From IMG/VR virus record IMGVR_UViG_2698536647_000006: DNA of 17,791 nt. One strand, given 5' to 3'. Under the pieces are notes generated by a model. It did no database searches. It was not told the DNA's origin and saw only the letters and a list, made by a program, of their open reading frames with translations. The stretch comes from a virus. Taxonomy: Duplodnaviria; Heunggongvirae; Uroviricota; Caudoviricetes. Position 1 is the stretch's first letter. Each line of letters begins with the position of its first letter. Positions 297 through 16,423 of the stretch are shown here, piece after piece. The position numbers and the translations under genes are program-made.

Positions 297-578
297 CTAC
301 CTTTGCCTCTTGCCGCCATTTAACCGGAAGGCGTTACCGTTCGGTTGCGCTATCCCCATGCGGTGTTGCGTTTCGGTAACAGCTTTATGCATGTCGCCAA
401 AGTCCTCAACCTTCACGGGCGGGCGCTTCACGTTCTCCAGACACGTTTCACGGCGGCGCTTTATCCATTCCCGATAATCGTCCTCGGTGCATAACAGCAT
501 GACTTCTGCCCATCGTGCGGCAGCTCTCCGGTATAGCCCTTTTGACTCCAGCTCTTCAGCTTTCCTGTCCCTTATCAT
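297..578 (-). CDS. Small putative transcriptional regulator (PerC/Pch-like small prophage regulator?)
   Basis: 93-aa ORF with a GAGAGG RBS-like motif just upstream of the ATG at 578. The N-terminal motif AEELESKGLYRRAAARW resembles small PerC-type prophage regulators; this family call is from memory and not verified. Confidence 0.45.
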   Translation of the reverse strand: MIRDRKAEELESKGLYRRAAARWAEVMLLCTEDDYREWIKRRRETCLENVKRPPVKVEDFGDMHKAVTETQHRMGIAQPNGNAFRLNGGKRQR

Positions 579-837: not shown

Positions 838-1278
838 ATGGTCTTTGCAATGAGCAAATCTAATCTGATCGCGTTCCGCATCCCATCTGAATTGCAGGAT
901 GAGTTTAATCGGTCTGTTCTCGCTTCTGGAGGGGATAAAACCTCCTGGCTTGTTGATGCGATTCGCATGAAGCTGGGACAGATGGAAAAGTCTATTGATT
1001 CACGAATGCTTGGGCTGGTGGAGCGCATGGAAAAAGCCGCAGCATCGCTTATTGCCGGAAAGCCGAACATCCCACCAAAGCCATATAACGAAACGGCAGT
1101 TATAAAGATCATTGCCGATACCATCCGACAGGGATTTGATAATGGGCGTGTGATAGCTGAACGGCTCAATGAAGCAGGCTACCAAACAAAAGCTGGTAAA
1201 GCGTGGGATAAAGACATTTACAGCGCGTGGAAGCGTCAGGGTAACAATATTAAAAGAATCAATACGCTGCTTCAGTAA
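838..1278 (+). CDS. RHH (Arc/CopG-like) DNA-binding protein, 146 aa
   Basis: The N-terminus NLIAFRIPSELQDEFNRSVLASGGDKTSWLVDAIRMKL fits a strand-helix-helix pattern. The C-terminal segment IAERLNEAGYQTKAGKAWDKDIYSAWKRQ resembles the helical DNA-binding module seen in recombinase-type proteins. Start could be the ATG at 850 (MSKSNL...). Confidence 0.55.
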   Translation: MVFAMSKSNLIAFRIPSELQDEFNRSVLASGGDKTSWLVDAIRMKLGQMEKSIDSRMLGLVERMEKAAASLIAGKPNIPPKPYNETAVIKIIADTIRQGFDNGRVIAERLNEAGYQTKAGKAWDKDIYSAWKRQGNNIKRINTLLQ

Positions 1279-1307: not shown

Positions 1308-2330
1308 TCAATCGCTCCCTTTCCGCCCTTCAGCTACAGGGTCGTTGTCGGCGATAACAAAACCTAAGTCCTGAGAGAATCTCTCTCGTGGGAATCCTTT
1401 AGCAGGTAAACCCATTGAATCATATCCACATCCGGGAACATTTGGTTTAGAGTCAATAAGGTCTGCAATTTGCCGAAGCCATGTTGATCCCGGACCAAGT
1501 TGTTTAACTAAGTACCAGATAATACAGATCGCGCTAAAAATCCTCTCGCAACTCTCTGGATGGAGATTAAGTCCGTCAAAGTATTCATTATCCGGTACTG
1601 GAACTCGGGGATGCTTTCTATTCCATATTCTGGAATGGTGAGCGCAACGATTCCTTATGAGATTAAGGCACTTCAACCATTTTGCAAATGTCTGCTTATT
1701 ATCAATGCCAAAACGACGTATAATTTTCCCCTGCATATGACCATTAAGCATCGCATAATATTTAGACATCTGACCAAAATCCCAGGTCTCCACCGCCACC
1801 CAAAATGGAATCTCCTTGCCTTGGCTTCGATGCCATTCAATACAGTCATCTCTGCTTTCGTCTAATTTTACTTTTTGCTTATACACCCAATGCTCGAAGG
1901 CAGATGAGAATTTTGGATTAATGTATTTTGATGACATGTAGGCAAGTGGATCATTGCGACCAACCTCATGCGCGATGACTGAACGAACATGAATCTCTAT
2001 TCTTTCGATAGCATCAATCATCAAAAGACGCAGTTTTTTGTCAAAAAGATATAGATCGTACGTCTTCTCGAAACTGGTACCAGCAAGAAATCGGTCTGTT
2101 CTGTACGAAAGACCTTTATCTGTTGTCGCAATAATTCTTGATGGGTACCAAAAACCTGACAATCGATAATATCCAACCTGCGACAGCTTACGTATCGCAC
2201 GATTTCGATCATTGATAATCATGCCACGTTCAAGTAGCAATCCTAGCAATTCGTGATAGTCCTTATGAGGCTTTGCGGCAATCATAGTGGCGAAACAAAA
2301 GATAATAAAAGGCCCGACCGTGAAACTCAC
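1308..2330 (-). CDS. Abi_2 family abortive-infection protein (AbiD/AbiF-like)
   Basis: Length ~325-340 aa. N-terminal KPHKDYHELLGLLLERGMIINDRNRAIRKLSQVGYYRLSGFWYP and C-terminal LNLIRNRCAHHSRIWN match motifs I associate with lactococcal AbiD/AbiF-type proteins. The true start is probably the internal ATG at 2285 (MIAAKPHK...). Confidence 0.7.
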   Translation of the reverse strand: MSFTVGPFIIFCFATMIAAKPHKDYHELLGLLLERGMIINDRNRAIRKLSQVGYYRLSGFWYPSRIIATTDKGLSYRTDRFLAGTSFEKTYDLYLFDKKLRLLMIDAIERIEIHVRSVIAHEVGRNDPLAYMSSKYINPKFSSAFEHWVYKQKVKLDESRDDCIEWHRSQGKEIPFWVAVETWDFGQMSKYYAMLNGHMQGKIIRRFGIDNKQTFAKWLKCLNLIRNRCAHHSRIWNRKHPRVPVPDNEYFDGLNLHPESCERIFSAICIIWYLVKQLGPGSTWLRQIADLIDSKPNVPGCGYDSMGLPAKGFPRERFSQDLGFVIADNDPVAEGRKGSD

Positions 2331-2478: not shown

Positions 2479-3157
2479 ATTCATATCGTTATCCACTACA
2501 GGCTGTGTCAATAATTTTTACCTATTAATTGGGTAATTTCTACATTTTCCTATGCTGGCTAGTTTCTCTACTGAAAAGTTGGCACTCCTTAATCGCTTTT
2601 CGGTTAATACTATCGGTCTTCATATTGCCAGCAGCATACGCCATCCGATAATTTCGATGCTACGCGCGCGTACTTGTCGCAAAATATCAGGCAAAGGCCA
2701 GATTCAGAACGTCGTGATAACCACCAGCACAACATGAGATGTCATGTAACGCGATTTATCACACCAGATACATGTGATTGGTGTACCCGCATAAAACATT
2801 GTCATAGCGCGTCCTGTGCGCATATACGCCGATAATCAACACATCACCACCACTCTGACTTATGTAGAGAACAGTTTCATGGTATCCCCCGCCATCGTGT
2901 GCGTACTGGTCGGACGCAGTTGCAAAAAATTTTGCAACTGATACCCCTCGCGCGCGTACTTGTCTCGAAATTGGTGTTTTGCTGTGGCAGTGATATCAGA
3001 AAAATCTTCCTGTTTCACATAAAGCGGATATGCGCGTACTGTAACGACCCCATCAACTGGGAGCGGATTTGAAATCCCGACCCAAGCTATGTACCAAATG
3101 CCATGTCTTGGATATATGATGATTGCCATTCTAAACAAAGCTAAAGGGAGGGTTGGT

Positions 3158-3508
3158 GTGAATGCTCAGGCTGTCATCATGGTTTTACTTGGTCTGATTG
3201 TCGCAAAACTATATCCAGACTGGTGGAAAGGGGTATTAGCAACTGTCGCCATCTATTTGCTTTTATCCGTCGTTAAGCGATCGTTCGTTAAGACCGTAAA
3301 TCAAGCAAAACGTTTCTCATTTAAGAATTTAATAAACTATATTACTGGGCTTATTTTTTGCCTTTCAATTTTGATCGCTTCAGCTTTTTTGCCCGTATCA
3401 ATAGCTAATTTTTTTGGCGCACCATATGAGGTAGGTTATCTATTCTCTGTTTTTTGTCTTGTTCTTTCCCTTCTTTACCTATGGATGAGAGCAAAGAACA
3501 AAAATTAG
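3158..3508 (+). CDS. Small integral membrane protein (~116 aa, four predicted TM helices); candidate immunity/partner protein
   Basis: Four hydrophobic stretches of ~15-23 residues. Strong RBS AAGGGAGG (3144-3151) sits 6 nt before the GTG at 3158; the ORF-track start at 3089 has no RBS. Convergent with the 701-aa gene. Confidence 0.5.
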   Translation: MNAQAVIMVLLGLIVAKLYPDWWKGVLATVAIYLLLSVVKRSFVKTVNQAKRFSFKNLINYITGLIFCLSILIASAFLPVSIANFFGAPYEVGYLFSVFCLVLSLLYLWMRAKNKN

Positions 3509-3522
3509 CCATCCATGGCTAA
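3500..3522 (-). terminator. Hairpin TTAGCCAT-CC-ATGGCTAA in the 18-nt gap between convergent stop codons, followed by TTTTT on the minus strand
   Basis: Read directly between stop 3506-3508 (+) and stop 3527-3529 (-). On the minus strand the stem is followed immediately by a T5 run, fitting an intrinsic terminator for the cargo operon. Confidence 0.45.
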
Positions 3523-3526
3523 CCAG

Positions 3527-5632
3527 TTATTGAGATTCTTTTTGTGATGCCTGTGCGACTCTGGTGAGCGATTGTGTGACCGTACTGATCGCTCTGTCAT
3601 ATGCTGTGCTACCTTTTGGCGTATTTGCCAGACGTAACAAGGCATTTCGTATAACAGGGCTTTCGTATGCCTTCGCTGCTCCGCCTACGACACCAGCAGC
3701 AGGAACAACAAACGCAGCCGTTTTTAGCATCCCCGCTAATACTGCTGCGTTTATGATGCCACCACCAACTAACAATCCATAAAGCTGCTGACCATTTAAG
3801 TTTTGAACGTTCGCTTTTGCCGCGTGTCTTGTATCATTGAGGTATTTAATAACGCCGTCCAGTTCCTTTCCATATACGCCTTTAAAGAAAGTTGCTGATT
3901 GCTTCCTGTTCCGGTGTAACGCATTAATAAACTTCTCAACACTGATATTTCCAGACGGATCAGTCGCCTTATCTACAGCATTCTGAACTATGGCGGCTCG
4001 TGCGTTTTGCCTACCATTGTCATCCAGAAGCCTGTAAAGCTGAGAACGTTCTGATGGGTTTTGGCTAAAAACGAGTTTTGTTACATCCTCAGGCGTGGCC
4101 TTGCCGCTGGCTATTGCCTTTTGAACGCGCGTTCTTCCCATCATGTCATTGAATCTAGCCCATGAGCGATCAACCCTAGACATATTGGTAGCTTCTTCTG
4201 AGCCTAGTTTTTGGGATACTGCTTTTTTCATATCCGCTGTATATGCCTTGTAGACAATATCGCTGGCTTTCTGGAGCGTGTCTTTATCAACAGTCTCGTT
4301 TGAATTCATGAACCGCTTTCGAAGGTCAGTTCTGTTTTCTCTCGCCAGACGCAGGTCATTGGGTCCGCTGGTGATATCGTCTTTAAATTGCTGCAAGACT
4401 TTTACCGCGGCTCTATCCTGAGATTTGCCCGGTCGGCTTAACACGGCAATCTGATTGTCGATAGCTTTTACCGTGTTTGAGAGATCGACAGGGGTATCCC
4501 CCATAGCGTCAATTATGCGGTTATATCGCTTTCCTGCTGCCTCAATGAATTTTTGCTGCCCTTTAGTCGCAGACTCATAAAGCTGTTTATCTGAAATTCC
4601 CCCCAGACCATCGCTAAATGTTCTGACTAAATTTTCTCGTGCTTGTTGTTGATTCAGTCGGTTCTTACCGGTTCCAAAAAAAGGAAGTCTTTCGCCTAAT
4701 GTCTGAGCCTGACTCTGCATAAAGGTTTTATCTTTCAGCATGTCACTGGTCATTAACGGCAGATTTCTTTCCGATGCAAAGTCGACAGCAGCCTTTGCTT
4801 CAGGCGACATATCACCACGAACAGCCCTCGAAACCGCACTCGCTGTATTTTCCAGCCCCTTACCAATACCACCAATGCCAGCAGAAATTACCGTTTGTAA
4901 CGGATCAATATCTTCTCCACCAGCAAGGCTGGTGGCTCCCTGTAGTGCTAAATCTGTAGCTGCTGATTTTCCTATGGCACCAAGCACCGTTCCAGCCCTG
5001 CCCGCTGGTGTAAACGCCAACGCATTAGCAAGAAACGAAGTCAGGTCTTGCGGTGATAAACCCGGCTTGTTTAGGGCATAATCACCTGATGGCAGAGAAA
5101 CGATAGTATTCCCCTTCTCATCCTGCCTTAATGTCGCCCCCATTCCCTGAAGAATCTTTTCCTGAGACGCGTCAGAGCCGAAAAGTTGAGACCATCCAGC
5201 CTTTAAGGCATCCATGCTTAGTGAGTTCAATTCTGGGGCAGAGGCGACATTTTGCAGTCTCTCCATCTCTGGAGTCATTCGGCTTTCGCCTGTTATAGCA
5301 TCGCGCATCGCAGCCCCAAGACTGGCTCCCTGTTCTGCTGAACGCTCAAGCCCCTCTCTTTGCTGAGTAGCTAACTTTGCATACCCTGACGCAAGAGAAT
5401 TATCAGATGATGTATGTTGAATATTTTGAGTTGCTGATTGGGATCGGTCTATTTCATTCGTTGATGGCAGTGGATAGGCAGCATAAAAAGCCTGCTTAGC
5501 CTGCTCTACACTTTCTCCGGCTTGCGGGGCCACGACTTCATTGAAGTATTGCTCCTGAGCCTGCGCTTTTTGTTCTGGTGCTAACGCCTGATACTGTGGA
5601 GAAGCGATAACATCTTTCCATGCTTTAGCCAT
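3527..5632 (-). CDS. Hypothetical 701-aa low-complexity (A/G/Q/S-rich) protein with a C-terminal hydrophobic helical hairpin
   Basis: Long ORF whose ATG (5632-5630) overlaps the upstream stop as TAATG, with GGGG 6 nt upstream. No P-loop or other catalytic motif seen by eye. Hydrophobic segment LYGLLVGGGIINAAVLAGML-KT-AAFVVPAAGVVGGAA lies ~48 residues from the C-terminus. Confidence 0.8.
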   Translation of the reverse strand: MAKAWKDVIASPQYQALAPEQKAQAQEQYFNEVVAPQAGESVEQAKQAFYAAYPLPSTNEIDRSQSATQNIQHTSSDNSLASGYAKLATQQREGLERSAEQGASLGAAMRDAITGESRMTPEMERLQNVASAPELNSLSMDALKAGWSQLFGSDASQEKILQGMGATLRQDEKGNTIVSLPSGDYALNKPGLSPQDLTSFLANALAFTPAGRAGTVLGAIGKSAATDLALQGATSLAGGEDIDPLQTVISAGIGGIGKGLENTASAVSRAVRGDMSPEAKAAVDFASERNLPLMTSDMLKDKTFMQSQAQTLGERLPFFGTGKNRLNQQQARENLVRTFSDGLGGISDKQLYESATKGQQKFIEAAGKRYNRIIDAMGDTPVDLSNTVKAIDNQIAVLSRPGKSQDRAAVKVLQQFKDDITSGPNDLRLARENRTDLRKRFMNSNETVDKDTLQKASDIVYKAYTADMKKAVSQKLGSEEATNMSRVDRSWARFNDMMGRTRVQKAIASGKATPEDVTKLVFSQNPSERSQLYRLLDDNGRQNARAAIVQNAVDKATDPSGNISVEKFINALHRNRKQSATFFKGVYGKELDGVIKYLNDTRHAAKANVQNLNGQQLYGLLVGGGIINAAVLAGMLKTAAFVVPAAGVVGGAAKAYESPVIRNALLRLANTPKGSTAYDRAISTVTQSLTRVAQASQKESQ

Positions 5633-7080
5633 TAATCACCCCATAGTGAAGAAAAGTTACTGCTGGCTGCTGGCTGTGATACCTGTGCAGGTTGAGATTG
5701 CTGCCGCTGAGATTTACCAACATTAACGTTATATTGCTGGTTGTAATTGTCGGTATATTGCTGAATGTCGCGCATTGATTGTTGTAGTGCTTCAGGGCTT
5801 GAGAAATCAGGCTTTGGCATACCCTGAAAATACCTATTGGCCTCTGCTTCGGTGTTGATGCCAGATGCCCCCATATCTCGGGCTGCCGCAATCCCCTGAT
5901 TTTGCATTTTGCCCATGATTCGCTGTGCAGCGTTGTATAGTTTCCTCTCCTCAACACCAGATGCCCGGCTACGAATATCTGCACCAAGAGCAAAAGAACC
6001 TGAAGAACCTGTAATACCTGTCATGAAGCCAAGATCGTCAATTGATGCGCCAGAAATTGCATCAAGATCTTTCTTCATTTCGTAATTCTGCGCATTAGCT
6101 GCCGATGTAGCCGGAGCAGCAATAGAACTTGCGGGGACGCGAATCATATTGCCCTCGTTGTCTATTCCTTCGTAGAACGCATTAGCACCAGCGCCGTGAA
6201 GCTTCCTACCAACCGTTACCGTTCTACCATCTGCCAGTTGCACAACATTCTCCCCGCCAGCAGCAGGACGGCCTCGAACACGAAGATATGTCTTTTGTTG
6301 CTCTGGAGACAGGCTGTTGAAATATTGATATTCTTTAACAGATGCAGGAACAGCACCTCCAGCAGTGCGCAGAGAGTTTTCACGGCTAACAGCAATGCTT
6401 TGCGCCTGTAAACCTTCCCCAGCTTTATTGCTGCGAATCGTCTCTGCCAACTCGCCACGCTCAATATCCCGACCCTCCATTCGATCTTTGATATCGAAGT
6501 ACTTCTCATGACCGAGAGAAAACAGCGCCAGATTACCTGCGAAATGCTGGAAGCCCTGCGGGTCATTAACCTGCATTTCAGCAATAGTTTCTGGAGGGAT
6601 ACCTAAACGACGCATCTCCTGCTCATTATCCATCATGAACCTGCCAAATGCGCCCGGACCAAGCGATGAGGCTACCTGTGCTTTGAGCGCCAGATTGCCA
6701 TAATCATCCCTTTGAGCATCATCGACATAACTCATCCCTTTACGGACTTCCTCAAACTCTTCTGGGAATGCTGTAATAAGATTACGCATCTGCTCCCTGT
6801 CGCCGGACGCATAAGCATCTGCATAACCTTTCTGGAATGCCGCTTTACGCTCCTGCTGTTGCTGCTGCTTATAAATATCAGCAACTCCAGCCAGACCACG
6901 TAACGCGGTCAGACCAACGTTATTTGCACCTGAGCGAGCCAGTTCATTGTTTTCGCGGATCAGACCAAGCGTTGCGTTAATGTCGCTTGCCTTTGGCGCA
7001 TTCTCATTTTGCGTACCGATGCCAGCCAGAAAACCACCAGAATTAATACCCTGTTGCCACGTAGCCATTGATTTACCCAC
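5632..7080 (-). CDS. Hypothetical 482-aa low-complexity (Q/G/A/N-rich) protein, translationally coupled to the 701-aa gene
   Basis: Long ORF with no recognisable enzymatic motif. The track start is GTG at 7080; an alternative ATG at 7068 lies 4 nt after the stop of the 57-codon ORF. Confidence 0.8.
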
Positions 7081-7246
7081 GTCCAGTTAAAGTGTAAGCC
7101 AGCGCCTTATCCATTAATCCCCGAGCAATTTCGTGGATCGTTGGCGCAACTCCTACCTCTGATTTTTTACGCTGCTCCTCCTGAATTTTCTTTATCGCTT
7201 CCATTTGCTTCTCACTTATCAATACTGGCTTTACTGAAATAGCCAT
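7073..7246 (-). CDS. Unannotated 57-aa ORF, RHH-like; first gene of the cargo operon
   Basis: Manual translation: ATG 7246-7244, TAA 7075-7073, giving [66 protein letters not shown] lies 4-5 nt upstream. Below the ORF-track cutoff. Confidence 0.45.
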
Positions 7247-7261
7247 AACGCCCCCTTAGAA

Positions 7262-7277
7262 CTGTATAAAACAACAG
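7262..7277. promoter_or_regulatory. LexA (SOS) box CTGT-N8-ACAG
   Basis: CTGTATAAAACAACAG read directly, with an AT-rich spacer. About 14/20 positions match the E. coli consensus TACTGTATATATATACAGTA, including both half-sites. A perfect TATAAT on the minus strand (7285-7280) lies just upstream, though no good -35 was found. Confidence 0.55.
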
Positions 7278-7341
7278 TTATTATAGTTTCACAAATCGCA
7301 ATATTCATCATCGTAATTGCAAAATATGAAACAAATAGCAC

Positions 7342-7374
7342 AAAAAAATGCCACCGCTCAGTAGCTGGTGGCAT
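7342..7374 (-). terminator. Rho-independent terminator (minus strand) separating the primase/iteron region from the cargo operon
   Basis: Minus strand reads ATGCCACC-AGCTACTGAGC-GGTGGCAT followed by TTTTTT: an 8-bp GC-rich stem plus T6. Confidence 0.6.
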
Positions 7375-7568
7375 CGTTCTGTATGTCAGGTTTTGACAGG
7401 TTTTTTATGGACTCTAAAAACTATATTTATGGTGTCGCATTACTCTTCACGGCAGGCGCTTTCCAGTTCTGCCCTTGCTTCTGGCTCCATTGGTAATTTG
7501 ATTCGCGATCAGCTATGCGGATGGTTTGCTGAACAGGCATAACAACTTCTCAAAGGCTGTTTTTTGAA

Positions 7569-7694: not shown

Positions 7695-7810
7695 GTTGGT
7701 TCAAAATACCGTGTTGTTGGTTCAGTGTTGGTTCAATAAAAAGAATAAAATCCTTATAAAACAATACTCTTTACAAATTGAACCAACTGAACCAACTGAA
7801 CCAACACCTT
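7695..7810. repeat. Iteron cluster B: three spaced GTTGGTTCA (7695-7703, 7716-7724, 7727-7735) plus three tandem TGAACCAAC (7779-7805)
   Basis: Direct reading; mirror image of cluster A. Lies immediately 3' of the primase-helicase gene, so it is a candidate ori. Confidence 0.7.
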
Positions 7811-7830: not shown

Positions 7831-10587
7831 TCATTCTTCAGATGAGTTATAATCTCCAGGCTGGTAATTGAGTACATAAACGTTTATTTGTCGTCCCTGA
7901 ATACGTGGTGATTTTCTTTGGTATCCACGACCGCTGTTTGGTGGGGTTAGCATCCCGGCTTTTTTCAACACTTCAGCAAACTGTTTTGCGTTGAAACCAC
8001 ATGCGATCTCCTTTTCAAATGTGGCCGGGAATGTGTAGAAAATCATTGGGCTTTCGTCATGTTCTCCACGCTGACGGTATCCGGCCAAATCTTTGATGGG
8101 CAAATCTGCCGGGCTGTATGGAAATGGTGCAAAACGGCTAAGCCCATAGGCATTAAGAAATGCCTCCGTTTGTTCAATAATCTGCTGATGTTCTTTGTTA
8201 CCTGTGCCGAACTCGCGCAACCATGCGTTATAGCTGTGCTGTATCGCATCACGGCATGTCTGAGCATCCCAGCCTGTTACAACCTCGCCTAACAGCAATG
8301 CGGCCTCCAGAATGGCAAATCGCGCGGCTACACGGTGAACCTGCTCACCATAATCGGATGGGATCAGACTTCTCCATCTGCTTTCGCAGTCACGAACAGT
8401 TTTAATTGCCTGTTGCTGGTGGTCTGCCAGCCATTTAATCCACTCACGCCCGGCTGCGCCGTGGTGATGCTGGTAAGCGTCTTTCAGTGCGTCTGCGTGC
8501 TGTTTTCCGTTCTGGTAATCGTGAAAGCGTACTGCTTTACTCAACGGAATATTCAGCAGTCGCACCAGTTGCCCGGCTTTGGTTTTTCGCCCGGAAGTAG
8601 CGATAAATGTTTCTAAATCCATTTCTCCAGTGCTGATTGCCACTGTACGCCAGCGTTTTAGATCCCGGTTTCCACCATCTTTAGCGCCTTGCAGTTTCCC
8701 TACACCGTTAAATAACGCATAGGCAGACTGTGAAACACTGACAGGATCAGCGCCCTGACCAACTTCATCAAGCGGTATTAGTCCGTCATTGTGGGCGGCG
8801 GCTTCATTTGCCAGCCCCAGCGCGGTTCCGTACCACGTCAGCCGCAATAAATCAGGGTTGCCGTATAAGCTGCTCGCCACGTTTGCCGTGGTGGTCTTAC
8901 CTGCGCTCGACTGCTCATAGAAATGAATGCCGAACCCGTCAGCGCCCACCAGCCCAATCAATGGCGCTGCCAGTGCTGCGCCGATCCCGGTCATCATTGA
9001 ATAGTTACCAAAGGCCAGACGCGCCACGTTATCACGCCAGCTTTTCGCGCTCCCTGAGACGGTATATCCGGCTGCGGCTGAGCTTCTCCCGCTGAACAGC
9101 ACAGGATTTTCAGGTGTTCCGATGATTTCCCCATCAGGCATGATGTACGCTCCGCATTGCCAGCCAGTGGCATGAGCAACACGCCACAATTCACGAGAGC
9201 CACTGCGTTGTAGCCAGTCTGCCAGTATTGCTCTGAGGCTGCTTTTGGTCGTGACATTTACCCCACCAGCTTTAAGTGTGCGCCATCCTTCACGTTCACC
9301 AATATCAGCCAGTGGAATAGCAGCGGTTGTCGGCGTTTCAGAACCAAACGACAGCCAGCGAAGAATGAGATACTGGTCTTTATCGTCTCTGCCAGTACCG
9401 ATAACGCTTAACGGAGAACATAACCAGCTTTCGTTATTGATGATTTCTCCACTCTGGCTGTCAGCTCTCGGAGATACCCAATAAATACCATCCTCGCGGC
9501 TTTCTATTCTTGGTTTCAGTGGGTCGGTATCCATAACCTTAAAATCGCTTCCCTCAATGGTCTGTGGCTGCTGTTTCACGCCATTACCCTGTGGTTGGTA
9601 CATTGACTTATTGAACGCTTCTGTGGCGCATTTAATGCCGTGTTTTTGGTGGTAATCATTCCAGTCTGCTTTGTGATCTGTCGGGGGTAATGCCACCCAT
9701 CCAGAAACAGATAAAGCTGCTTTTTCTGCTGCTATTCTCCCCGTGTTTTGTCTTCCTTCGCTGTGGTCGTTATCCGCAGCAATGATGATTTGTGCTGAAG
9801 GAAATTTATCCCGCAGTACCTGGGCGACATATAACAGGTTCCCGGCATCAATCGCCGCCACTGTCAGCGATTCTGGACGAATTAAATGGGCAGATAATGC
9901 CGTTGCCAGCCCTTCTGCGATTAAGATGCTCTGTGTTGTTTCTGGTGCGTTTATGGCGTGATATGCCCCTCGCTTTGCTGAACCTGTCAGGAGTCTTTTT
10001 TCACCATGTGAGGTAATAGTCTGTGCTGCTGTGACTGCGCCGGATTTATCCACCAGCGCCAGCAACAGAGATCCATCGGGCAACACTGGGAATGTAAAAT
10101 CACCTACCCCTTTCGCAACCAGATAATCAGATTTGCCGTTTACAGCCTTTCTGCGCATGTCATCAAACTGACGGGAAAACGTATCCCGTCTTTGTTGTTC
10201 GTCCTTCTCTGCCCTTTTCAGGCGCTCCTGTTCGCGTCGCTGGCGCTCGGTTTCCAGTTGTTCCCGTTTCTGGCTGGTGGCTTCTGGTGTTTCCGTTGTC
10301 CGGTAATCAATACCCAGAACATCAGCGGCAAGCAGCGCCGCCTCTGTTGTGTCGCAGTTATTTACGCGTTTAATTAAATCCAGCCCATCACCAGCGCCGC
10401 ACTGATTACAGATGAAGCTACCGCGCCCGTTGTCATCGAACCGGAATCGATCTTTGCCCCCACATGCAGGGCAGGGAGCATGACGGCGCGGAGAGTCAGG
10501 GACATTTATGTTCAGGCAGCCCAGCACATGAGGCCAGTTGTTTTCAGACGCACTGATAACCTGACGGATAAGATCAATGTTTCGCAT
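7831..10587 (-). CDS. Primase-helicase (zinc-ribbon primase, TOPRIM, P-loop NTPase), 918 aa
   Basis: Cys-rich N-terminus CPACGG...CNQCG; TOPRIM-like IAEGLATA...AADNDH; Walker A SSAGKTT and Walker B-like IPLDEVGQ. GGGGG RBS 5 nt upstream of the ATG at 10587. Architecture resembles satellite-phage replicases such as P4 alpha. Confidence 0.85.
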   Translation of the reverse strand: MRNIDLIRQVISASENNWPHVLGCLNINVPDSPRRHAPCPACGGKDRFRFDDNGRGSFICNQCGAGDGLDLIKRVNNCDTTEAALLAADVLGIDYRTTETPEATSQKREQLETERQRREQERLKRAEKDEQQRRDTFSRQFDDMRRKAVNGKSDYLVAKGVGDFTFPVLPDGSLLLALVDKSGAVTAAQTITSHGEKRLLTGSAKRGAYHAINAPETTQSILIAEGLATALSAHLIRPESLTVAAIDAGNLLYVAQVLRDKFPSAQIIIAADNDHSEGRQNTGRIAAEKAALSVSGWVALPPTDHKADWNDYHQKHGIKCATEAFNKSMYQPQGNGVKQQPQTIEGSDFKVMDTDPLKPRIESREDGIYWVSPRADSQSGEIINNESWLCSPLSVIGTGRDDKDQYLILRWLSFGSETPTTAAIPLADIGEREGWRTLKAGGVNVTTKSSLRAILADWLQRSGSRELWRVAHATGWQCGAYIMPDGEIIGTPENPVLFSGRSSAAAGYTVSGSAKSWRDNVARLAFGNYSMMTGIGAALAAPLIGLVGADGFGIHFYEQSSAGKTTTANVASSLYGNPDLLRLTWYGTALGLANEAAAHNDGLIPLDEVGQGADPVSVSQSAYALFNGVGKLQGAKDGGNRDLKRWRTVAISTGEMDLETFIATSGRKTKAGQLVRLLNIPLSKAVRFHDYQNGKQHADALKDAYQHHHGAAGREWIKWLADHQQQAIKTVRDCESRWRSLIPSDYGEQVHRVAARFAILEAALLLGEVVTGWDAQTCRDAIQHSYNAWLREFGTGNKEHQQIIEQTEAFLNAYGLSRFAPFPYSPADLPIKDLAGYRQRGEHDESPMIFYTFPATFEKEIACGFNAKQFAEVLKKAGMLTPPNSGRGYQRKSPRIQGRQINVYVLNYQPGDYNSSEE

Positions 10588-11676: not shown

Positions 11677-11867
11677 TTTTCACCCCCAAGAATTACCAGC
11701 TCGGCACGGGCATCGTTAACCAAAGATGAGCGCGCTTTAATCGCATCCACGACATCAGCAGCGTCCATTTCTTCAGCCGAAAGACTGACAGCAACCGGGA
11801 CAGCCGCTGCTTGCTCGATTAATTGAAGTGCGGACGTAAGGCGAGGGGTATTAATTGAGTTATTCAT
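11673..11867 (-). CDS. Hypothetical small protein (64 aa; track ORF extends to 11924)
   Basis: The ATG at 11867 is preceded by GGGGG and overlaps the upstream stop as ATGAATAA; the longer track start has no RBS. Confidence 0.5.
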   Translation of the reverse strand: MNNSINTPRLTSALQLIEQAAAVPVAVSLSAEEMDAADVVDAIKARSSLVNDARAELVILGGEK

Positions 11868-12078
11868 TGGTTGCCCCCGTTTTGCATGGCATTTGTCCAC
11901 CTTCCAGCAGGAAATGAACGTCACGAACGGCGAGGTCCAATATCGCGAGTAACGCCTTCAGTTTTTCGTCTCGTGAGGGAGAGTTGCTCACCAGAATGTC
12001 GTTAATCACTTCTGTCAGTGTGATGATCTGGCTTGTGCGTTCGAGGGGATCCATATGCACATCGTAGGTTTTAATCAT
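11860..12078 (-). CDS. Hypothetical small protein (72 aa), nested in-frame at the 3' end of the 355-codon ORF
   Basis: ATG at 12078 with GGAGG 6 nt upstream, overlapping the stop of the 12071-12265 ORF as ATGATTAA. Product [30 protein letters not shown]... looks protein-like. Confidence 0.45.
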   Translation of the reverse strand: MIKTYDVHMDPLERTSQIITLTEVINDILVSNSPSRDEKLKALLAILDLAVRDVHFLLEGGQMPCKTGATNE

Positions 12079-12927
12079 GTGCCACCTCCATGCGGATACG
12101 ACCAGCAAAAAAGCAGATGTGATCGCGCACCAGAGAACGGCGAGCATCGCGTTCAGACTCGGCAGCAATATGATGAATTTTGGCGGTAATTGTCGGGCAA
12201 TCGCGGCGAACTGCGGCGATAATCCAGATAAATTGCGTTTTTTGGGTAGGGGTAGTAGCCAGCATGTGGCAGCCTCCTTCAGATAGCAGGTTACGCTACC
12301 ACCGGAAACGCCAATTTCGCTGGTGGTAGCCCAGACAGGGTTGGCGTAACCGGCTCTGAAGGATACCGGCGCTTCCGAAGAAGCCCCCGCCTGAGCCACC
12401 ATTGATTGACAAAGGCGCTGGATTATACACCAACGCCCAAAAAATGGGTGAGTCAGACCTACGACATAAAAAAAGACGCTCGGCGCGTCATATGTCGCCT
12501 TCAGAATTTTCAGGACGCCAATCCCGGCACCCGTTTTATGAGGTGCCTTATAACCATAAACCGTGTTGCCGCATAACGGCAAGCTCTTTTTTATGGACTC
12601 CGAAAACTCACTATTGGAAGAACCAGAAGCACAGTACATCGCGCTCATTTCGTTAACGTCACGCGCGTGGACGAAGGTTTTTGTGGAGTCACTACACGAG
12701 CAGAGAAAGCCATCTACGACCAGAAATTCTCTGGCATAGCCGCTGACCTTCTCAACGCTAACACCATCGACCGTAATTTCTGACATAGTTAAGGCATCCG
12801 CTCCTACCACCAGAAAATGATAAACTTTGCTTGTATCTGCTGTATTAATGTCTGACTTTGCTGTCATATTGCTGGATTTTGGCGACATACCAGCCAGTGA
12901 AAATATCTTCTTCTGGGCGGTTAGCAT
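11860..12927 (-). CDS. 355-codon ORF, probably composite; the 5' ~220 codons may be a real gene
   Basis: ATG at 12927 with GGAGG 7 nt upstream, and no in-frame stop until 11860. The middle segment overlaps a strongly RBS-fronted ORF in another frame and reads as low-quality protein; hairpins lie inside it. Confidence 0.3.
12071..12265 (-). CDS. Hypothetical small protein (64 aa)
   Basis: ATG at 12265 with a perfect AAGGAGG 7 nt upstream. It overlaps the long 355-codon ORF in a different frame. Confidence 0.4.
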   Translation of the reverse strand: MLATTPTQKTQFIWIIAAVRRDCPTITAKIHHIAAESERDARRSLVRDHICFFAGRIRMEVAHD

Positions 12928-13103
12928 TTGTTAACCTCCGCGAACTCCTTCATGAAACGTGCCAGCGGTTGTACGCATGGCGATTGATACCCGTCGCGAT
13001 AAAACGTCACTCGGTTGTGAGACACGCTTTCGACAGTAACGAGTGCTCCGTGGGCATCTTTGTAGCGTTTTTGAGGTTGTGGTGTTCCTGTCGGCTTAAA
13101 CAT
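12921..13103 (-). CDS. Small conserved island protein (~60 aa; possibly DUF4222-like)
   Basis: ATG at 13103 (MFKPTGTPQPQKRYKDAHGALVTVESVSHNRVTFYRDGYQSPCVQP...) overlaps the upstream stop as ATGTTTAA. Resembles small prophage proteins I recall; family unverified. Track ORF extends to 13190. Confidence 0.45.
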   Translation of the reverse strand: MFKPTGTPQPQKRYKDAHGALVTVESVSHNRVTFYRDGYQSPCVQPLARFMKEFAEVNKC

Positions 13104-13929
13104 GGACCGCCTCCAGACGCTTGGCGAGCCAGCGTTGCGACAGGCGGGTGAGTTCTCCTTTGCGCTGCTCATATTCCATGCCCATATCAATTAACGTGAT
13201 ATTGGTGCTTTCGAGATATGAGAGGTGCTCAAGCTGTTCTGCGTTCATATGGTCGCGAGGTTCGCCAGAATAGCCATTTATCCGCGCCCACTGCTTAGCA
13301 GTTAGCCCACCAAGAACGATACGAGAAATCATATTGCTCTCGTTTGTGTAGTGGTGTTGCTGCGTCGTTTTCCCCTGCTCGGCACGGGCCATATTCAGCG
13401 CATCGCACATTGGCTTAAAGTTGTTTGCGGCACTAATACGGGCTTTTAGCTGGCGACGATAGCGGGCGGCGATTTCAGGCACGCTACGCTGTAATTCTTC
13501 CTCGCACTGGATGAAATAACGACGGATAGCGCGACCCTGATCATTGCGTTCGATCATTGCCAGTTCTTTCGCCATTCCGACACTTAACAGATAGTCTTTG
13601 CCGGGTCTGCCAGACTGCTTAATCTTGCTGTAAGCCGCGCCATTCGGGCTTTTCCCCAAATTTGGGGAAATTGTTTTATGGACTGAGTAATCGTGCCCAA
13701 TGGTGAAGTCATATTCAGAGATGCGATCAGTGATCCATGTAGAGAAGTCTTTTCCCACGCCCAACGCTTTGTGTAACGCTTTTGCGCTAACAATATTGGT
13801 TTCACGCCCACCGATATGACCAGGAATAACCGGGACAATTGCGGCAAATTCATTACCGTTAATTGTGCCCAGAGAGGCGTTCAGATGAGGGGCAGCCTCA
13901 GAAATTAATCTGCTTTTTTCGATGTTCAT
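13096..13929 (-). CDS. Phage antirepressor-like protein (AntA/KilA-C type), 277 aa
   Basis: N-terminal VSAKALHKALGVGKDFSTWITDRISEYDFTIGHDY matches the AntA-type motif as I recall it; the C-terminal half is helical. Family call from memory. Confidence 0.6.
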   Translation of the reverse strand: MNIEKSRLISEAAPHLNASLGTINGNEFAAIVPVIPGHIGGRETNIVSAKALHKALGVGKDFSTWITDRISEYDFTIGHDYSVHKTISPNLGKSPNGAAYSKIKQSGRPGKDYLLSVGMAKELAMIERNDQGRAIRRYFIQCEEELQRSVPEIAARYRRQLKARISAANNFKPMCDALNMARAEQGKTTQQHHYTNESNMISRIVLGGLTAKQWARINGYSGEPRDHMNAEQLEHLSYLESTNITLIDMGMEYEQRKGELTRLSQRWLAKRLEAVHV

Positions 13930-13941
13930 TTTCAGTCTCCG

Positions 13942-14373
13942 TTAGGCGGCGTTAAACGCGTCCGGGTAGAGTTTCAGAATGTCGGCAATTTCCTGCTGAG
14001 AAAGTCCGTTGTGATCATTTATGTTCGCAAGATGGTTAATATGAGTGATCACTTTCAGAACATCACCACGGCAGGAGAAACGGTAGCGAAGGTGTGTTCC
14101 GATACCATCAGGATTCTTTTCGTCGATACGCTCCAGAGTGATTCCAAGCTGGCGTTCTAACTCTGTTGCATAGTTACGACCAGAAGACAGACGGCAGTAG
14201 CGAAGAATGTCATTTTCTGTCCATCCCTCTATACCAGTACGCAGCATATAGACTCTGGCACGATGCTTTTTCGGTGTGCGCTTTGGTGCTTGAAGGGATT
14301 TTGTAAGGGGCGTAACATCAGATACACGAATATCTGAATTAGCCGCCTGTAATGGGCGGTTTTTCTTTTCCAT
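13942..14373 (-). CDS. Hypothetical protein (143 aa)
   Basis: ORF immediately downstream of alpA with a 1-nt TGATG stop/start overlap; no family recognised. Confidence 0.55.
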   Translation of the reverse strand: MEKKNRPLQAANSDIRVSDVTPLTKSLQAPKRTPKKHRARVYMLRTGIEGWTENDILRYCRLSSGRNYATELERQLGITLERIDEKNPDGIGTHLRYRFSCRGDVLKVITHINHLANINDHNGLSQQEIADILKLYPDAFNAA

Positions 14374-14576
14374 CAGGCCATCTCGTCTCTAGATTCTAAT
14401 ATACACTTCTCAATCCATTCATCTATTTCAGACTCAACAAAAGCAATTGCCCGACTTCCAATTTTTACCTGTTTAGGGAACCTCCCCTGACTAATAAGAC
14501 GATAAATCCATGCTTTGCTATAACCAGTTCGCCTTTGAACTTCAGAGAGACGAATTAATGAATTGTAATTAGCCAT
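14373..14576 (-). CDS. alpA: AlpA-family phage regulatory protein (small HTH activator/excisionase-like)
   Basis: 67 aa; LIRLSEVQRRTGYSKAWIYRLISQGRFPKQVKIGSRAIAFVESEIDEWI matches the AlpA/Vis-type HTH pattern. Sits next to the integrase, as usual in tRNA islands. Confidence 0.85.
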   Translation of the reverse strand: MANYNSLIRLSEVQRRTGYSKAWIYRLISQGRFPKQVKIGSRAIAFVESEIDEWIEKCILESRDEMA

Positions 14577-14967
14577 TTATTAATATCCTGTACTAATGAC
14601 GCAATAACCCCCTCCTGCAACGAATGGCGAGAGTTTTATTTGCGTCAAATGCCGAATACGCCAAAGACCACAATATGAAAAACATATTGCGGTCTTTTAT
14701 AAAAGATAGTCAGATTGTTTTGGTTTGTTTGCTCCACAAGGGTAGAGCTACCCTGCATTTCGGCAGGATCACGCTATTAGGCGTGACATCCAGTAGTTTT
14801 AAAGAACATTCCGCTTTGTCAGCGACGTAGAAGGCTCAATACACCTTCGTTTATAAAAGAGCGATTGCCCTTCTCCAGGGCTAACTGTTAAATAGCAATC
14901 CTCTGTGAGTTTTTATCAATCTACTCCCCTATACTTTAGTAAACCTCTGTATACTTGTCCAGTTGTT

Positions 14968-16182
14968 TCATGCGTGTTTTTCAAACACCATATGCACCAC
15001 ATTTCCGCCATGCTCGAGAGAATCCATATAGTCGGCATACCATTGAAGCATCTCCCGCCTTCCATCCAGATATTGCGCATGGTTGTATGTGCCACGAATT
15101 GAGTTCTTATCAACGTGAGCGAGCTGCGTTTCTATCCACGCGGTGTTATAGCCCTGCTCATGCAAAATCGTACTCATAGTGTGCCGGAACCCATGACCAG
15201 TTACACGTCCAGCGTAGCCAATGCGCTTAAACACTTGGTTTATGCTGGCCTCGCTCATTGTTTTCCTTGGATCATTGCGCCCGGGAAACATAAGAGGGTA
15301 ATTGCCTGTTATTTCTCTAATCTTCCCAATAAGCGAAAGAGCCTGCTCAGACAATGGCACAATATGAGGCCGCCGCATTTTCATACGTGAAGCGGGTATC
15401 TCCCAGATAGCCTTGTTGAAATCAATTTCATCCCATAATGCGCCACGTAGTTCGCCAGTCCGCAAGCCGGTGATAATCAGTAGACGAGCCGCCATAACAA
15501 CCAATGCGCTTCCTGAGTAACTGGACAATGCCTTGAAAAAATCAGGTAATTCTTTGGCTGTAAGGAAAGGGTAATGATTAGATTCATGGCCTTGCATCGC
15601 GCTAGTAAGGTCTGGTGCAGGGTTATACTCTGCGCGACCAGTGACTATTGCATAGCGGAAAACTTCCCCGCACCGCTGCCTCACTTTTTTGGCTTTTTCT
15701 GTAGCACCGCGCCCCTCGATGCGCCGCAGCACATTCAGAAGTTCAAGTGGTTTGATTTCGGCGATTGGTTTTTTGCCAATGTAAGGGAACACATCTTTGT
15801 TGAAGGCTTCGAGGATGTCTGAAGCATAACCAGCAGACCATTTTTTTAATTTGCTGCTGTGCCACTCAAGGGCAATATCTTTGAAGGTGTTGTTTAACTG
15901 CGTTTCCCGGGCAATCTTTTCCTCTCGTTTCGCTTCCATCGGATCGATACCACCAGCGATACCTCTTTTCGCATCTTCACGTTTTGCCCGAGCATCGGCT
16001 AGAGTAACCTCAGGATACACACCTAGTGCCAATAGCTTCTCTTTACCAGCTACACGATATTTAAGTCGCCAGTATTTACCTCCATTAGGTTTTACCAAGA
16101 GATACAAACCGCCACCATCGGCCAGCTTGTAAGCCTTCTCTTTTGGCTTGGCTGTGTCTATTTGACGGGCATTGAGTTTCAC
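14968..16182 (-). CDS. int: P4-type tyrosine integrase
   Basis: 404 aa; N-terminal arm-binding pattern LADGGGLYLLVKPNGGKYWRLKYR and C-terminal catalytic region HGFRHT...LAH...Y. Starts at GTG 16182 with GGAGG upstream. Adjacent to the tRNA 3' end. Confidence 0.9.
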   Translation of the reverse strand: MKLNARQIDTAKPKEKAYKLADGGGLYLLVKPNGGKYWRLKYRVAGKEKLLALGVYPEVTLADARAKREDAKRGIAGGIDPMEAKREEKIARETQLNNTFKDIALEWHSSKLKKWSAGYASDILEAFNKDVFPYIGKKPIAEIKPLELLNVLRRIEGRGATEKAKKVRQRCGEVFRYAIVTGRAEYNPAPDLTSAMQGHESNHYPFLTAKELPDFFKALSSYSGSALVVMAARLLIITGLRTGELRGALWDEIDFNKAIWEIPASRMKMRRPHIVPLSEQALSLIGKIREITGNYPLMFPGRNDPRKTMSEASINQVFKRIGYAGRVTGHGFRHTMSTILHEQGYNTAWIETQLAHVDKNSIRGTYNHAQYLDGRREMLQWYADYMDSLEHGGNVVHMVFEKHA

Positions 16183-16347: not shown

Positions 16348-16423
16348 TGGTGCCGATAATAGGAGTCGAACCTACGACCTTCGCATTACGAATGCGCTGC
16401 TCTACCAACTGAGCTATATCGGC
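16348..16423 (-). tRNA. thrW: tRNA-Thr (anticodon CGU), intact with 3' CCA; island attachment site
   Basis: Minus strand reads GCCGATATAGCTCAGTTGGTAGAGCAGCGCATTCGTAATGCGAAGGTCGTAGGTTCGACTCCTATTATCGGCACCA, 76 nt with anticodon-loop TTCGTAA. Matches E. coli thrW as I recall it, and lies next to proA as in E. coli. Confidence 0.9.

Follow-up and report, generated by a model that had tools for sequence, protein, structure and literature searches.

What is the function of an operon of two large, compositionally biased proteins that sits behind a LexA box in an Escherichia coli chromosomal island? The stretch of DNA analyzed here (the window) is the 17,791-nucleotide IMG/VR virus record IMGVR_UViG_2698536647_000006, assigned to the Caudoviricetes, and the operon, called the cassette below, lies on its minus strand and is met at its 3′ end by a small convergent membrane protein gene. 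An initial annotation, made from the sequence alone, could place the large proteins in no family and proposed an undescribed system akin to a pore-forming bacteriocin with its immunity protein; phage ejection or internal proteins were named as the alternative. It is this alternative that is borne out. That the locus is the late zone of a Gram-negative phage-inducible chromosomal island (GN-PICI)-type satellite, and that its large proteins are P22-type ejection proteins, is close to certain when identity and context are taken jointly.

Our calls of the open reading frames (ORFs) agreed with the initial annotation on the three minus-strand ORFs of 57, 482, and 701 aa and on the convergent membrane ORF, which are as follows:

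Positions 7073..7246, minus strand: leader ORF of 57 aa, specific to the island family, preceding gp20.
Positions 5632..7068, minus strand: gp20-type ejection protein, 478 aa from the ATG at 7068 (PGAP start); the mechanical ORF has 482 aa (5632-7080) and starts with the GTG at 7080.
Positions 3527..5632, minus strand: gp16-type ejection protein, 701 aa; its C-terminal part has a hydrophobic hairpin (about residues 617-650).
Positions 3158..3508, plus strand: convergent membrane ORF, 116 aa from the GTG at 3158, with the strong ribosome-binding site (RBS) AAGGGAGGG and about four hydrophobic segments; the mechanical ORF has 139 aa (3089-3508).

In the DNA conduit of P22, the periplasmic tube consists of gp20, and gp16 is the component at the inner membrane. 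The first large protein, for which the ATG at 7068 (478 aa) is likely the better and real start, matched the Pfam family PF16928 (Inj_translocase; P22 injectosome DNA/protein translocase) with 275.9 bits against a cut-off of 29.7 (E=3.3e-82), matched phrog_917 over its full length (E=6e-199), and was 58% identical to P22 gp20 over 441 aa (E=1e-168). The 701-aa protein matched phrog_770 (DNA transfer protein) over residues 19-699 (E=1.7e-163) and, by BLASTP, P22 gp16 with 30% identity over 482 aa (E=5e-52), a level that we set within the range separating functional gp16 proteins, as those of P22, Sf6, HK620, and CUS-3 differ at 22-26% identity (PMC10883804). The local copy of Pfam gave no gp16 or SieA model match, and P22 gp16 and P22 SieA themselves score nothing in it; negative Pfam results with respect to gp16 and SieA, such as that for the 701-aa protein, are therefore uninformative. 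On identical DNA, RefSeq/PGAP already uses the names "phage DNA ejection protein" for the first and "injection protein" or "P22-gp16 family phage DNA ejection protein" for the second. At the gene level there is thus nothing new: these are ordinary P22-type ejection proteins, already named by automated annotation.

The features that had attracted attention in the two proteins fit this assignment. Both are rich in A, G, Q, and S (37-39% together) and contain no Cys, but such a composition is normal for P22 gp20 and gp16 (35-40%). The tight gene spacing was likewise recovered, with 4 nt (atca) before the gp20 ATG and a TAATG overlap at the gp20/gp16 junction (5632), an arrangement also found in ST104, N7, S88, and P22. 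The hydrophobic segment at about residues 617-650 of the 701-aa protein, seen by hydropathy, is also a feature of gp16 in a genuine P22-like prophage, that of E. coli S88. In some genomes PGAP calls the gp16-type gene a pseudogene "missing C-terminus" (window ~3818-5633), although the 701-aa ORF is uninterrupted; this call is an annotation artefact, and an ORF of identical length is annotated as complete in strain PK8277.

An SOS-induced, pore-forming toxin split over two proteins, with the small protein of four transmembrane (TM) segments as its immunity partner, had been suggested by the SOS box before the operon, as in colicin operons, by the C-terminal hydrophobic hairpin, and by the small convergent membrane protein. 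All three features are present, but both large proteins are full-length homologs of virion ejection proteins, the hairpin and the membrane ORF were inherited together from ordinary P22-like prophages, and relatives hold tape-measure or internal virion proteins at the same place (see below). In Pfam, no colicin or other toxin family was found at E<=0.1, and PADLOC gave no match. The homology, together with the missing toxin and defence matches, disposes of the bacteriocin proposal, to which we leave next to no probability.

How do such genes come to lie in this island? The window is an E. coli chromosomal segment with proA and thrW followed by the island, the features of which are listed here in order from thrW:

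Positions 16348-16423, minus strand: tRNA-Thr(CGT) gene (thrW), the end on the side of the attachment site (att); the island directly abuts thrW/proA.
Positions 14968-16182, minus strand: P4-type tyrosine integrase, reading inward from thrW; the integration zone spans 14373..16182.
Positions 14373-14576, minus strand: AlpA, beside the integrase in the integration zone.
Positions 12469-12546, minus strand: isrK RNA within the Ash gene (Rfam, 67.8 bits, above the gathering score).
Positions 12319-12406, minus strand: C4 antisense RNA within the Ash gene (Rfam, 79.9 bits, above the gathering score).
Positions 7831..10587, minus strand: Zn-ribbon/TOPRIM/DUF927 primase (Pfam), replication zone.
Positions 7715..7805, no strand: inverted iteron sets, three copies of TGAACCAAC facing two of TGTTGGTTCAG, directly after the primase stop codon.
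Positions 1308..2330, minus strand: AbiD/Abi_2 abortive-infection gene; it lies on the distal side of the cassette, in the accessory bay.
Positions 297..578, minus strand: PerC-family transcriptional activator, close to the island's distal end.

Between AlpA and the primase lies a Bro zone with an AntA protein, a DUF4222 protein, and an Ash-family protein, so that the gene order from thrW is integrase, AlpA, AntA/DUF4222/Ash with C4/isrK, primase, iterons, cassette, AbiD, and PerC. GN-PICIs are laid out as an Integration zone, a Bro zone with C4-isrK, a Replication zone, and a Late zone, which is dynamic (Tommasini, Mageeney & Williams 2023, PMC10111431), and this four-zone order fits the window gene for gene: an inward-reading integrase and AlpA by the att site, Bro genes with C4/isrK, then a primase followed by a putative origin. 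The satellite-like setting recognized by the initial annotation at thrW was therefore the right one. C4/isrK are the P4 CI/seqA-type RNA immunity elements reported for PICI Bro zones (PMC10111431), and their presence implies, as far as sequence goes, an early operon of the satellite under RNA-based control. The iterons at 7715-7805 are probably the replication origin of the satellite; an Rfam scan of the promoter/origin region gave only sub-threshold miRNA-like matches, caused by the inverted iterons.

The initial annotation had held that clear homology of both proteins to virion proteins, within an intact prophage, would speak against its proposal. The homology is clear; the intact prophage is not there, and the context is that of a satellite. 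No gene for coat, portal, terminase, gp4/gp10/gp26, gp14, gp7, or tailspike was found in the window, and no phage record covered >=80% of the region. A decayed P22-like prophage at thrW was considered and excluded by the four-zone PICI backbone, by circular 12-23-kb relatives that contain the slot, and by the precise joints at which the phage genes were captured. We also rejected the possibility of a helper-embedded PICI (PMC10111431), in which the cassette would belong to a surrounding prophage: the island abuts thrW/proA, and it encloses the cassette, which has the primase on one side and AbiD/PerC on the other. The relatives in question have been deposited as circular, non-mobilizable "plasmids" of 12-23 kb with integrase, AlpA, primase, and late zone, the cassette position included, and comprise E. 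coli NZ_CP148430.1 (12 kb, gp20 truncated), K. pneumoniae NZ_CP033626.1 (with a tape-measure gene), and the Raoultella record NZ_CP146545.1. Such small circular records are probably excised, replicating satellites. The K. pneumoniae record contains a ~4.6 kb assembly-style duplication. No second copy of the thrW 3′ end that would mark attR, and with it the distal end of the island, was found in the window or in a 32-kb homologous locus.

The joint between island and phage DNA is precise. Phage homology sets in at the gp7|gp20 spacer GGGTAA(A)TCAATG, which reads GGGGTAATCAATG in phages and GGGTAAATCAATG in the window. The leader ORF of the island enters this spacer and ends at its TAA, ahead of the four nucleotides that precede the gp20 ATG; since the leader stops within the captured spacer, translational coupling is kept. 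At the other end, homology to P22-like prophages runs through gp16 and the membrane ORF and ends at ~3136. The phage-derived block (~3136-7078) thus holds three genes, gp20, gp16, and the membrane ORF, without gp7 and gp14. The joints indicate that a P22-like phage was the donor of the pair, that the break fell exactly in the gp7|gp20 spacer, and that the membrane gene behind gene 16 came with it. The island alleles are mosaics of the P22-like phage and prophage pool, with <=92% nucleotide identity over parts.

The membrane ORF, described by the initial annotation as a small four-TM protein with a strong RBS, conforms to that description. Its homologs lie convergently, 17 bp past gene 16, in P22-like prophages of E. 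coli S88 and Yersinia enterocolitica, and another accompanies gp20-gp16 in an Edwardsiella island. The sieA gene of P22 has the same geometry, convergent with a ~20-nt gap after gene 16, and SieA is likewise a small multi-pass inner-membrane type of protein with its own RBS. There is, however, no detectable homology between the two (the comparison being with type A). SieA was rejected as a homolog on a BLASTP E of ~0.9, an hhalign probability of 0.5% against the SieA type A alignment, and the absence of the motif FxRYPxEAxxFNK, which is reported in all SieA types (PMC10883804). The membrane ORF keeps only a positional analogy to SieA. Its distribution shows that this ORF came from P22-like prophages along with its type of gp16 and sits in the slot of sieA; most likely it is a prophage-type moron, constitutively expressed and acting at the envelope or in superinfection exclusion, that travelled with gene 16. 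No similarity was seen between it and the convergent single-TM ORF of the Serratia islands.

Is the association of the island with ejection genes particular to this window? A scan of species-representative genomes that was seeded on the leader ORF, and hence blind to the cargo, returned 15 loci. The leader ORF is conserved in Escherichia, Serratia, Klebsiella, Raoultella, Erwinia, and others, and a DUF927 primase (62-99% identity) lies upstream of it in 15/15 loci. The following cargo was found behind it:

P22 gp14-gp7-gp20-gp16: Escherichia, a variant also common in E. coli.
A 108-aa protein and a tape-measure protein: nine loci (Pantoea, five; Erwinia, Chimaeribacter, Lonsdalea, and Serratia silvae).
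Three to four podovirus internal virion proteins: Leclercia, two Klebsiella species, and Pectobacterium.
A tape-measure/injection-transglycosylase-like protein: Raoultella.
A baseplate hub, then a small terminase: Rahnella.

The pair of 108-aa and tape-measure proteins was also found in Erwinia persicina and in the Klebsiella episome NZ_CP033626.1, which was fetched separately, and the Klebsiella tape-measure protein matches temperate Klebsiella siphoviruses. Overall, the same leader ORF and a TATAAT/CTGT promoter precede delivery-protein cargo in relatives from at least 12 genera. Judged by gene content, the slot behind the leader ORF holds envelope-crossing genome-delivery proteins of whichever phage type is locally available. 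Serratia and Edwardsiella islands again show the layout with gp20 and gp16 only, but with other alleles; in Serratia, an SLT domain is fused to gp16. Among 5426 complete E. coli genomes, the leader/promoter module was present in 361 (6-7%) and the exact cassette of the window in 57. In the Edwardsiella island, an unrelated small ORF (11891-12055 of that locus, minus strand) stands upstream of gp20-gp16 and the membrane ORF in place of the 57-aa leader, so that the leader is not obligatory for the cassette. In one of the internal-virion-type proteins of the Pectobacterium locus (11716-14214 of that locus), a segment matches a DarB-like antirestriction PHROG (E=6e-8), a hint that co-injected, satellite-encoded proteins might also carry anti-defence functions.

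The control region of the cassette comprises three elements, and a further hairpin closes it at the other end:

Positions 7350..7365, minus strand: terminator-like hairpin GCTACTGAGCGGTGGC with a T-run, closing the replication zone ahead of the cassette promoter.
Positions 7280..7285, minus strand: perfect -10 hexamer TATAAT of the cassette promoter.
Positions 7262..7277, minus strand: LexA (SOS) box CTGTTGTTTTATACAG, of the canonical form CTGT-N8-ACAG, 2 nt downstream of the -10.
Positions 3503..3524, no strand: hairpin TTAGCCATccATGGCTAA between the convergent stop codons, a potential terminator for both strands.

The LexA box and the flanking terminators of the initial annotation were thus all found. 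The box is the sole perfect CTGT-N8-ACAG in the 17.8-kb window, and a single match is not significant by count; its significance comes from its place directly past TATAAT and ~15 nt ahead of the RBS/ATG and from its conservation in relatives of other genera. The -35 is weak (ATGAAT, 17-nt spacing), and upstream of it are repeated TTGCAAT/GTGAAAT-like motifs. TATAAT was present in 13/15 species-representative loci and in 7/7 sequences of a promoter alignment, and together with the CTGT that follows it is conserved across genera. The operator itself exists in two lengths. The 16-nt LexA form occurs in other E. coli variants, Serratia nevei, Erwinia persicina, Pantoea 1.19, Lonsdalea, and P. coffeiphila, and a 15-nt form, CTGTAT-N3-ATCAG, in Klebsiella, Raoultella, Rahnella, Chimaeribacter, Serratia silvae, and some Pantoea and Erwinia (~8 lineages). 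As about half of the lineages have the 15-nt operator, SOS control is not a constant of the family; in these, either LexA control would have been lost or a different protein would bind the conserved element. For the cassette of the window we predict SOS control as the somewhat favored possibility, and the operator may also be a target of the leader protein, of PerC, or of a factor from the helper.

The leader ORF is possibly a small DNA-binding regulator. Its AlphaFold model (pLDDT 75) has an extended N-terminus and two helices and is compatible with a ribbon-helix-helix (RHH) protein; neither Foldseek nor a profile search gave a match to this fold in the PDB, and the "RHH" label of the initial annotation stays a guess. 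No match to the leader was found in 50,697 phage records. Two further observations concern regulation. In tape-measure-type islands a PerC homolog lies directly between the primase and the leader ORF, whereas in the window this gene lies far away, near the distal end of the island; the cassette promoter, with its weak -35, may be activated by PerC. In addition, a 22-nt direct repeat, TTTTTTATGGACTCTAAAAACT, occurs at 7401-7422 and 12587-12608 (91% identical), one copy just upstream of the terminator that precedes the cassette promoter and the other just upstream, in the sense of the transcript, of the isrK/C4 region. This repeat may be a regulatory site common to both regions, by which transcription reading through into the late zone would be tied to control by immunity RNA or by an activator; no obvious complementarity to C4 RNA was seen.

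Might the cassette nevertheless be a piece of a P22-like prophage that hitch-hikes in a dynamic late zone and has no current role? GN-PICIs have been documented to capture late genes and afterwards to lose many of them (PMC10111431), and the mosaic alleles, the absence of gp7 and gp14 from the window, and the existence of decayed copies would all fit such a history. The ratio of nonsynonymous to synonymous divergence (dN/dS) does not. It was 0.15-0.16 for gp20 and 0.19-0.20 for gp16 among E. coli island copies, and 0.04 and 0.11, respectively, among Serratia islands, which gives a range of 0.04-0.20. In the Serratia islands, moreover, the synonymous divergence (dS) of the cassette (0.10-0.16) is like that of the primase (0.105); with the low dN/dS, this means that the cassette diverged with the backbone under purifying selection. 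Further points against inert capture are the precise joint that preserves coupling to the leader ORF and promoter of the island, the recurrence of the gp20+gp16-only layout with different alleles in three genera, and the filling of the slot by delivery proteins in 15/15 cargo-blind loci. The cassette ORFs are intact in most copies. On these sequence patterns the cassette is maintained and is not debris, and we consider its inert capture improbable.

What, then, would a satellite gain from ejection proteins? We propose that DNA damage leads to LexA cleavage and also to the induction of SOS-inducible P22-like helper prophages, upon which the cassette promoter (TATAAT and LexA box) would fire. 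The satellite gp20 and gp16 would then be made during assembly of the helper procapsids and be incorporated in trans, and particles carrying satellite DNA would build the trans-envelope conduit from satellite-encoded proteins, with gp7 and gp14 supplied by the helper. The likely benefit would be control over entry into recipients. In P22, genes 16 and 20 must be a matched pair while gene 7 is interchangeable, and mutations that escape SieA map only to 16 and 20 (PMC10883804); the idea of delivery is attractive because the minimal cassette is exactly a matched 16/20 pair. That the satellite proteins enter helper virions for the delivery of the satellite itself is the likeliest of the explanations considered, at about even odds.

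Several observations weigh against it. By alignment, the gp20 allele of the island has the wild-type residues at the positions of the P22 gp20 escape mutations and so gives no direct sign of SieA resistance. Regarding the route of mobilization, there is no P22 pac site in the window at <=3 mismatches, no TerS-like protein among the island ORFs by Pfam or PHROGs, and no recognized capsid-remodelling gene in the island of the window. The poor -35 may mean that an activator is needed, the 15-nt operator is 1 nt too short for LexA, with the canonical form in about half of the lineages, and there are copies in which gp16 is frameshifted (strain HNSQ2209) or gp20 truncated (the 12-kb episome). Finally, the region downstream of pri in PICIs is also an anti-phage hot spot (PMC11364771).

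This last point bears on the main rival explanation, namely that the cassette serves interference or defence. Foreign gp20 and gp16 would be built in beside the ejection proteins of a helper or an invading P22-like phage, or would take their place, and the progeny, with mismatched conduit proteins, could not inject; this would be an interference with virion assembly like that of operon I of the Staphylococcus aureus pathogenicity islands (SaPIs) or of Tai/Tab, to which the membrane protein would add a SieA-like block of injection. The cassette does lie in the PICI hot spot by pri, the site of the Tai anti-phage genes (PMC11364771), and it adjoins AbiD; PADLOC, however, found nothing in the cassette. 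P22 particles with only a foreign gp16 assemble and are non-infectious, and mismatched ejection proteins can poison virions (PMC10883804), but the island has a complete matched 16+20 pair, which works in a heterologous P22 background (PMC10883804), so that poisoning is not expected. Relatives, moreover, carry full sets of delivery proteins (gp14-gp7-gp20-gp16, the tape-measure protein with its partner, or three to four internal virion proteins) that look functional and are under purifying selection over their whole length, more than a dominant-negative effect needs. An SOS-repressed promoter would be ill-suited to meet an incoming lytic phage. The membrane ORF does occupy the sieA slot of genuine P22-like prophages, but it lacks homology to SieA. 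SaPI operon I also speaks for interference: it has the same position and LexA control and is described as serving interference with phage reproduction (PMC5052747). On balance, we regard interference as an unlikely but still considerable alternative to delivery.

SaPI operon I is a precedent for a virion-related satellite operon in this position that LexA controls. The likeness to it extends to its location between the origin and the accessory genes, its repression by LexA, and its virion-related functions directed at the helper (PMC5052747). It ends there: there is no sequence relationship, operon I encodes TerS, capsid-size, and late-transcription interference proteins, and LexA control is only predicted for the cassette. 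By sequence, the cassette is related to the 14-7-20-16 cluster of P22, with which it also shares gene order, the TAATG overlap, an A/G/Q-rich and Cys-free composition, and a convergent small membrane gene ~20 bp after gene 16. The island pair differs in having its own LexA-box promoter and an island-specific leader, where the P22 genes are part of a phage late operon, and in the C-terminal hydrophobic hairpin of gp16, which P22 gp16 does not have. For the late zone of GN-PICIs, a capture of genes from helper prophages has been proposed, with capsid genes the commonest and with no mention of ejection, injection, or tape-measure proteins in the main text (PMC10111431); here, the cargo is for genome delivery, and the leader ORF and promoter before it are conserved in 12 genera or more. 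The EPIP satellites of Mycolicibacterium (bioRxiv 2025, PMC12822802) and the capsid-forming PICIs resemble the present islands in that they encode some virion components of their own; in EPIPs these include a tape-measure protein, which the authors remark is unusual for a satellite (PMC12822802). Both have unrelated hosts and backbones, encode no P22-type ejection proteins, and have no conserved leader/promoter module described for them.

It should be noted that the accessory bay of the island contains a second convergent arrangement. An ORF of ~140-146 aa at 838-1278 (plus strand), with an RHH-like N-terminus and a basic C-terminal domain, pairs with AbiD/Abi_2 (1308-2330, minus strand). The pair of Abi_2 and a convergent ~140-aa ORF was also seen in Serratia and Erwinia islands and could form a defence module of two genes.

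It is known that satellites appropriate capsids, terminases, and tails. In the literature on satellites and PICIs with ejection, injection, internal virion, or tape-measure proteins, we did not find this cargo and its leader/promoter module described, the exception being the mycobacterial EPIP preprint for the tape-measure protein. Late-gene capture by GN-PICIs and the proteins themselves were already known; what appears to be new is the context, that is, a satellite lineage that systematically carries, under a conserved promoter with a probable link to SOS, the genome-delivery proteins of its helper type. As a tentative model, which we hold to be somewhat less than probable, a widespread enterobacterial PICI lineage, marked by the DUF927 primase and by a conserved ~55-aa leader ORF behind a TATAAT/CTGT (often LexA-box) promoter, would have a swappable "ejectosome slot" in which it encodes the DNA-delivery proteins of its helper type, and would load them into helper virions and so acquire an entry specificity of its own. 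If this is true, satellite particles could inject cells whose helper prophage expresses exclusion proteins such as SieA, and cells with a resident helper prophage are those that the satellite needs to reach. If the proteins are loaded into particles, these islands would also offer natural, interchangeable ejection-protein modules for studying P22-type conduits against SieA-type blocks, and satellites would control the DNA-entry step of their own transfer, which would matter for host range, for helper interference, and for escape from superinfection exclusion that blocks injection.

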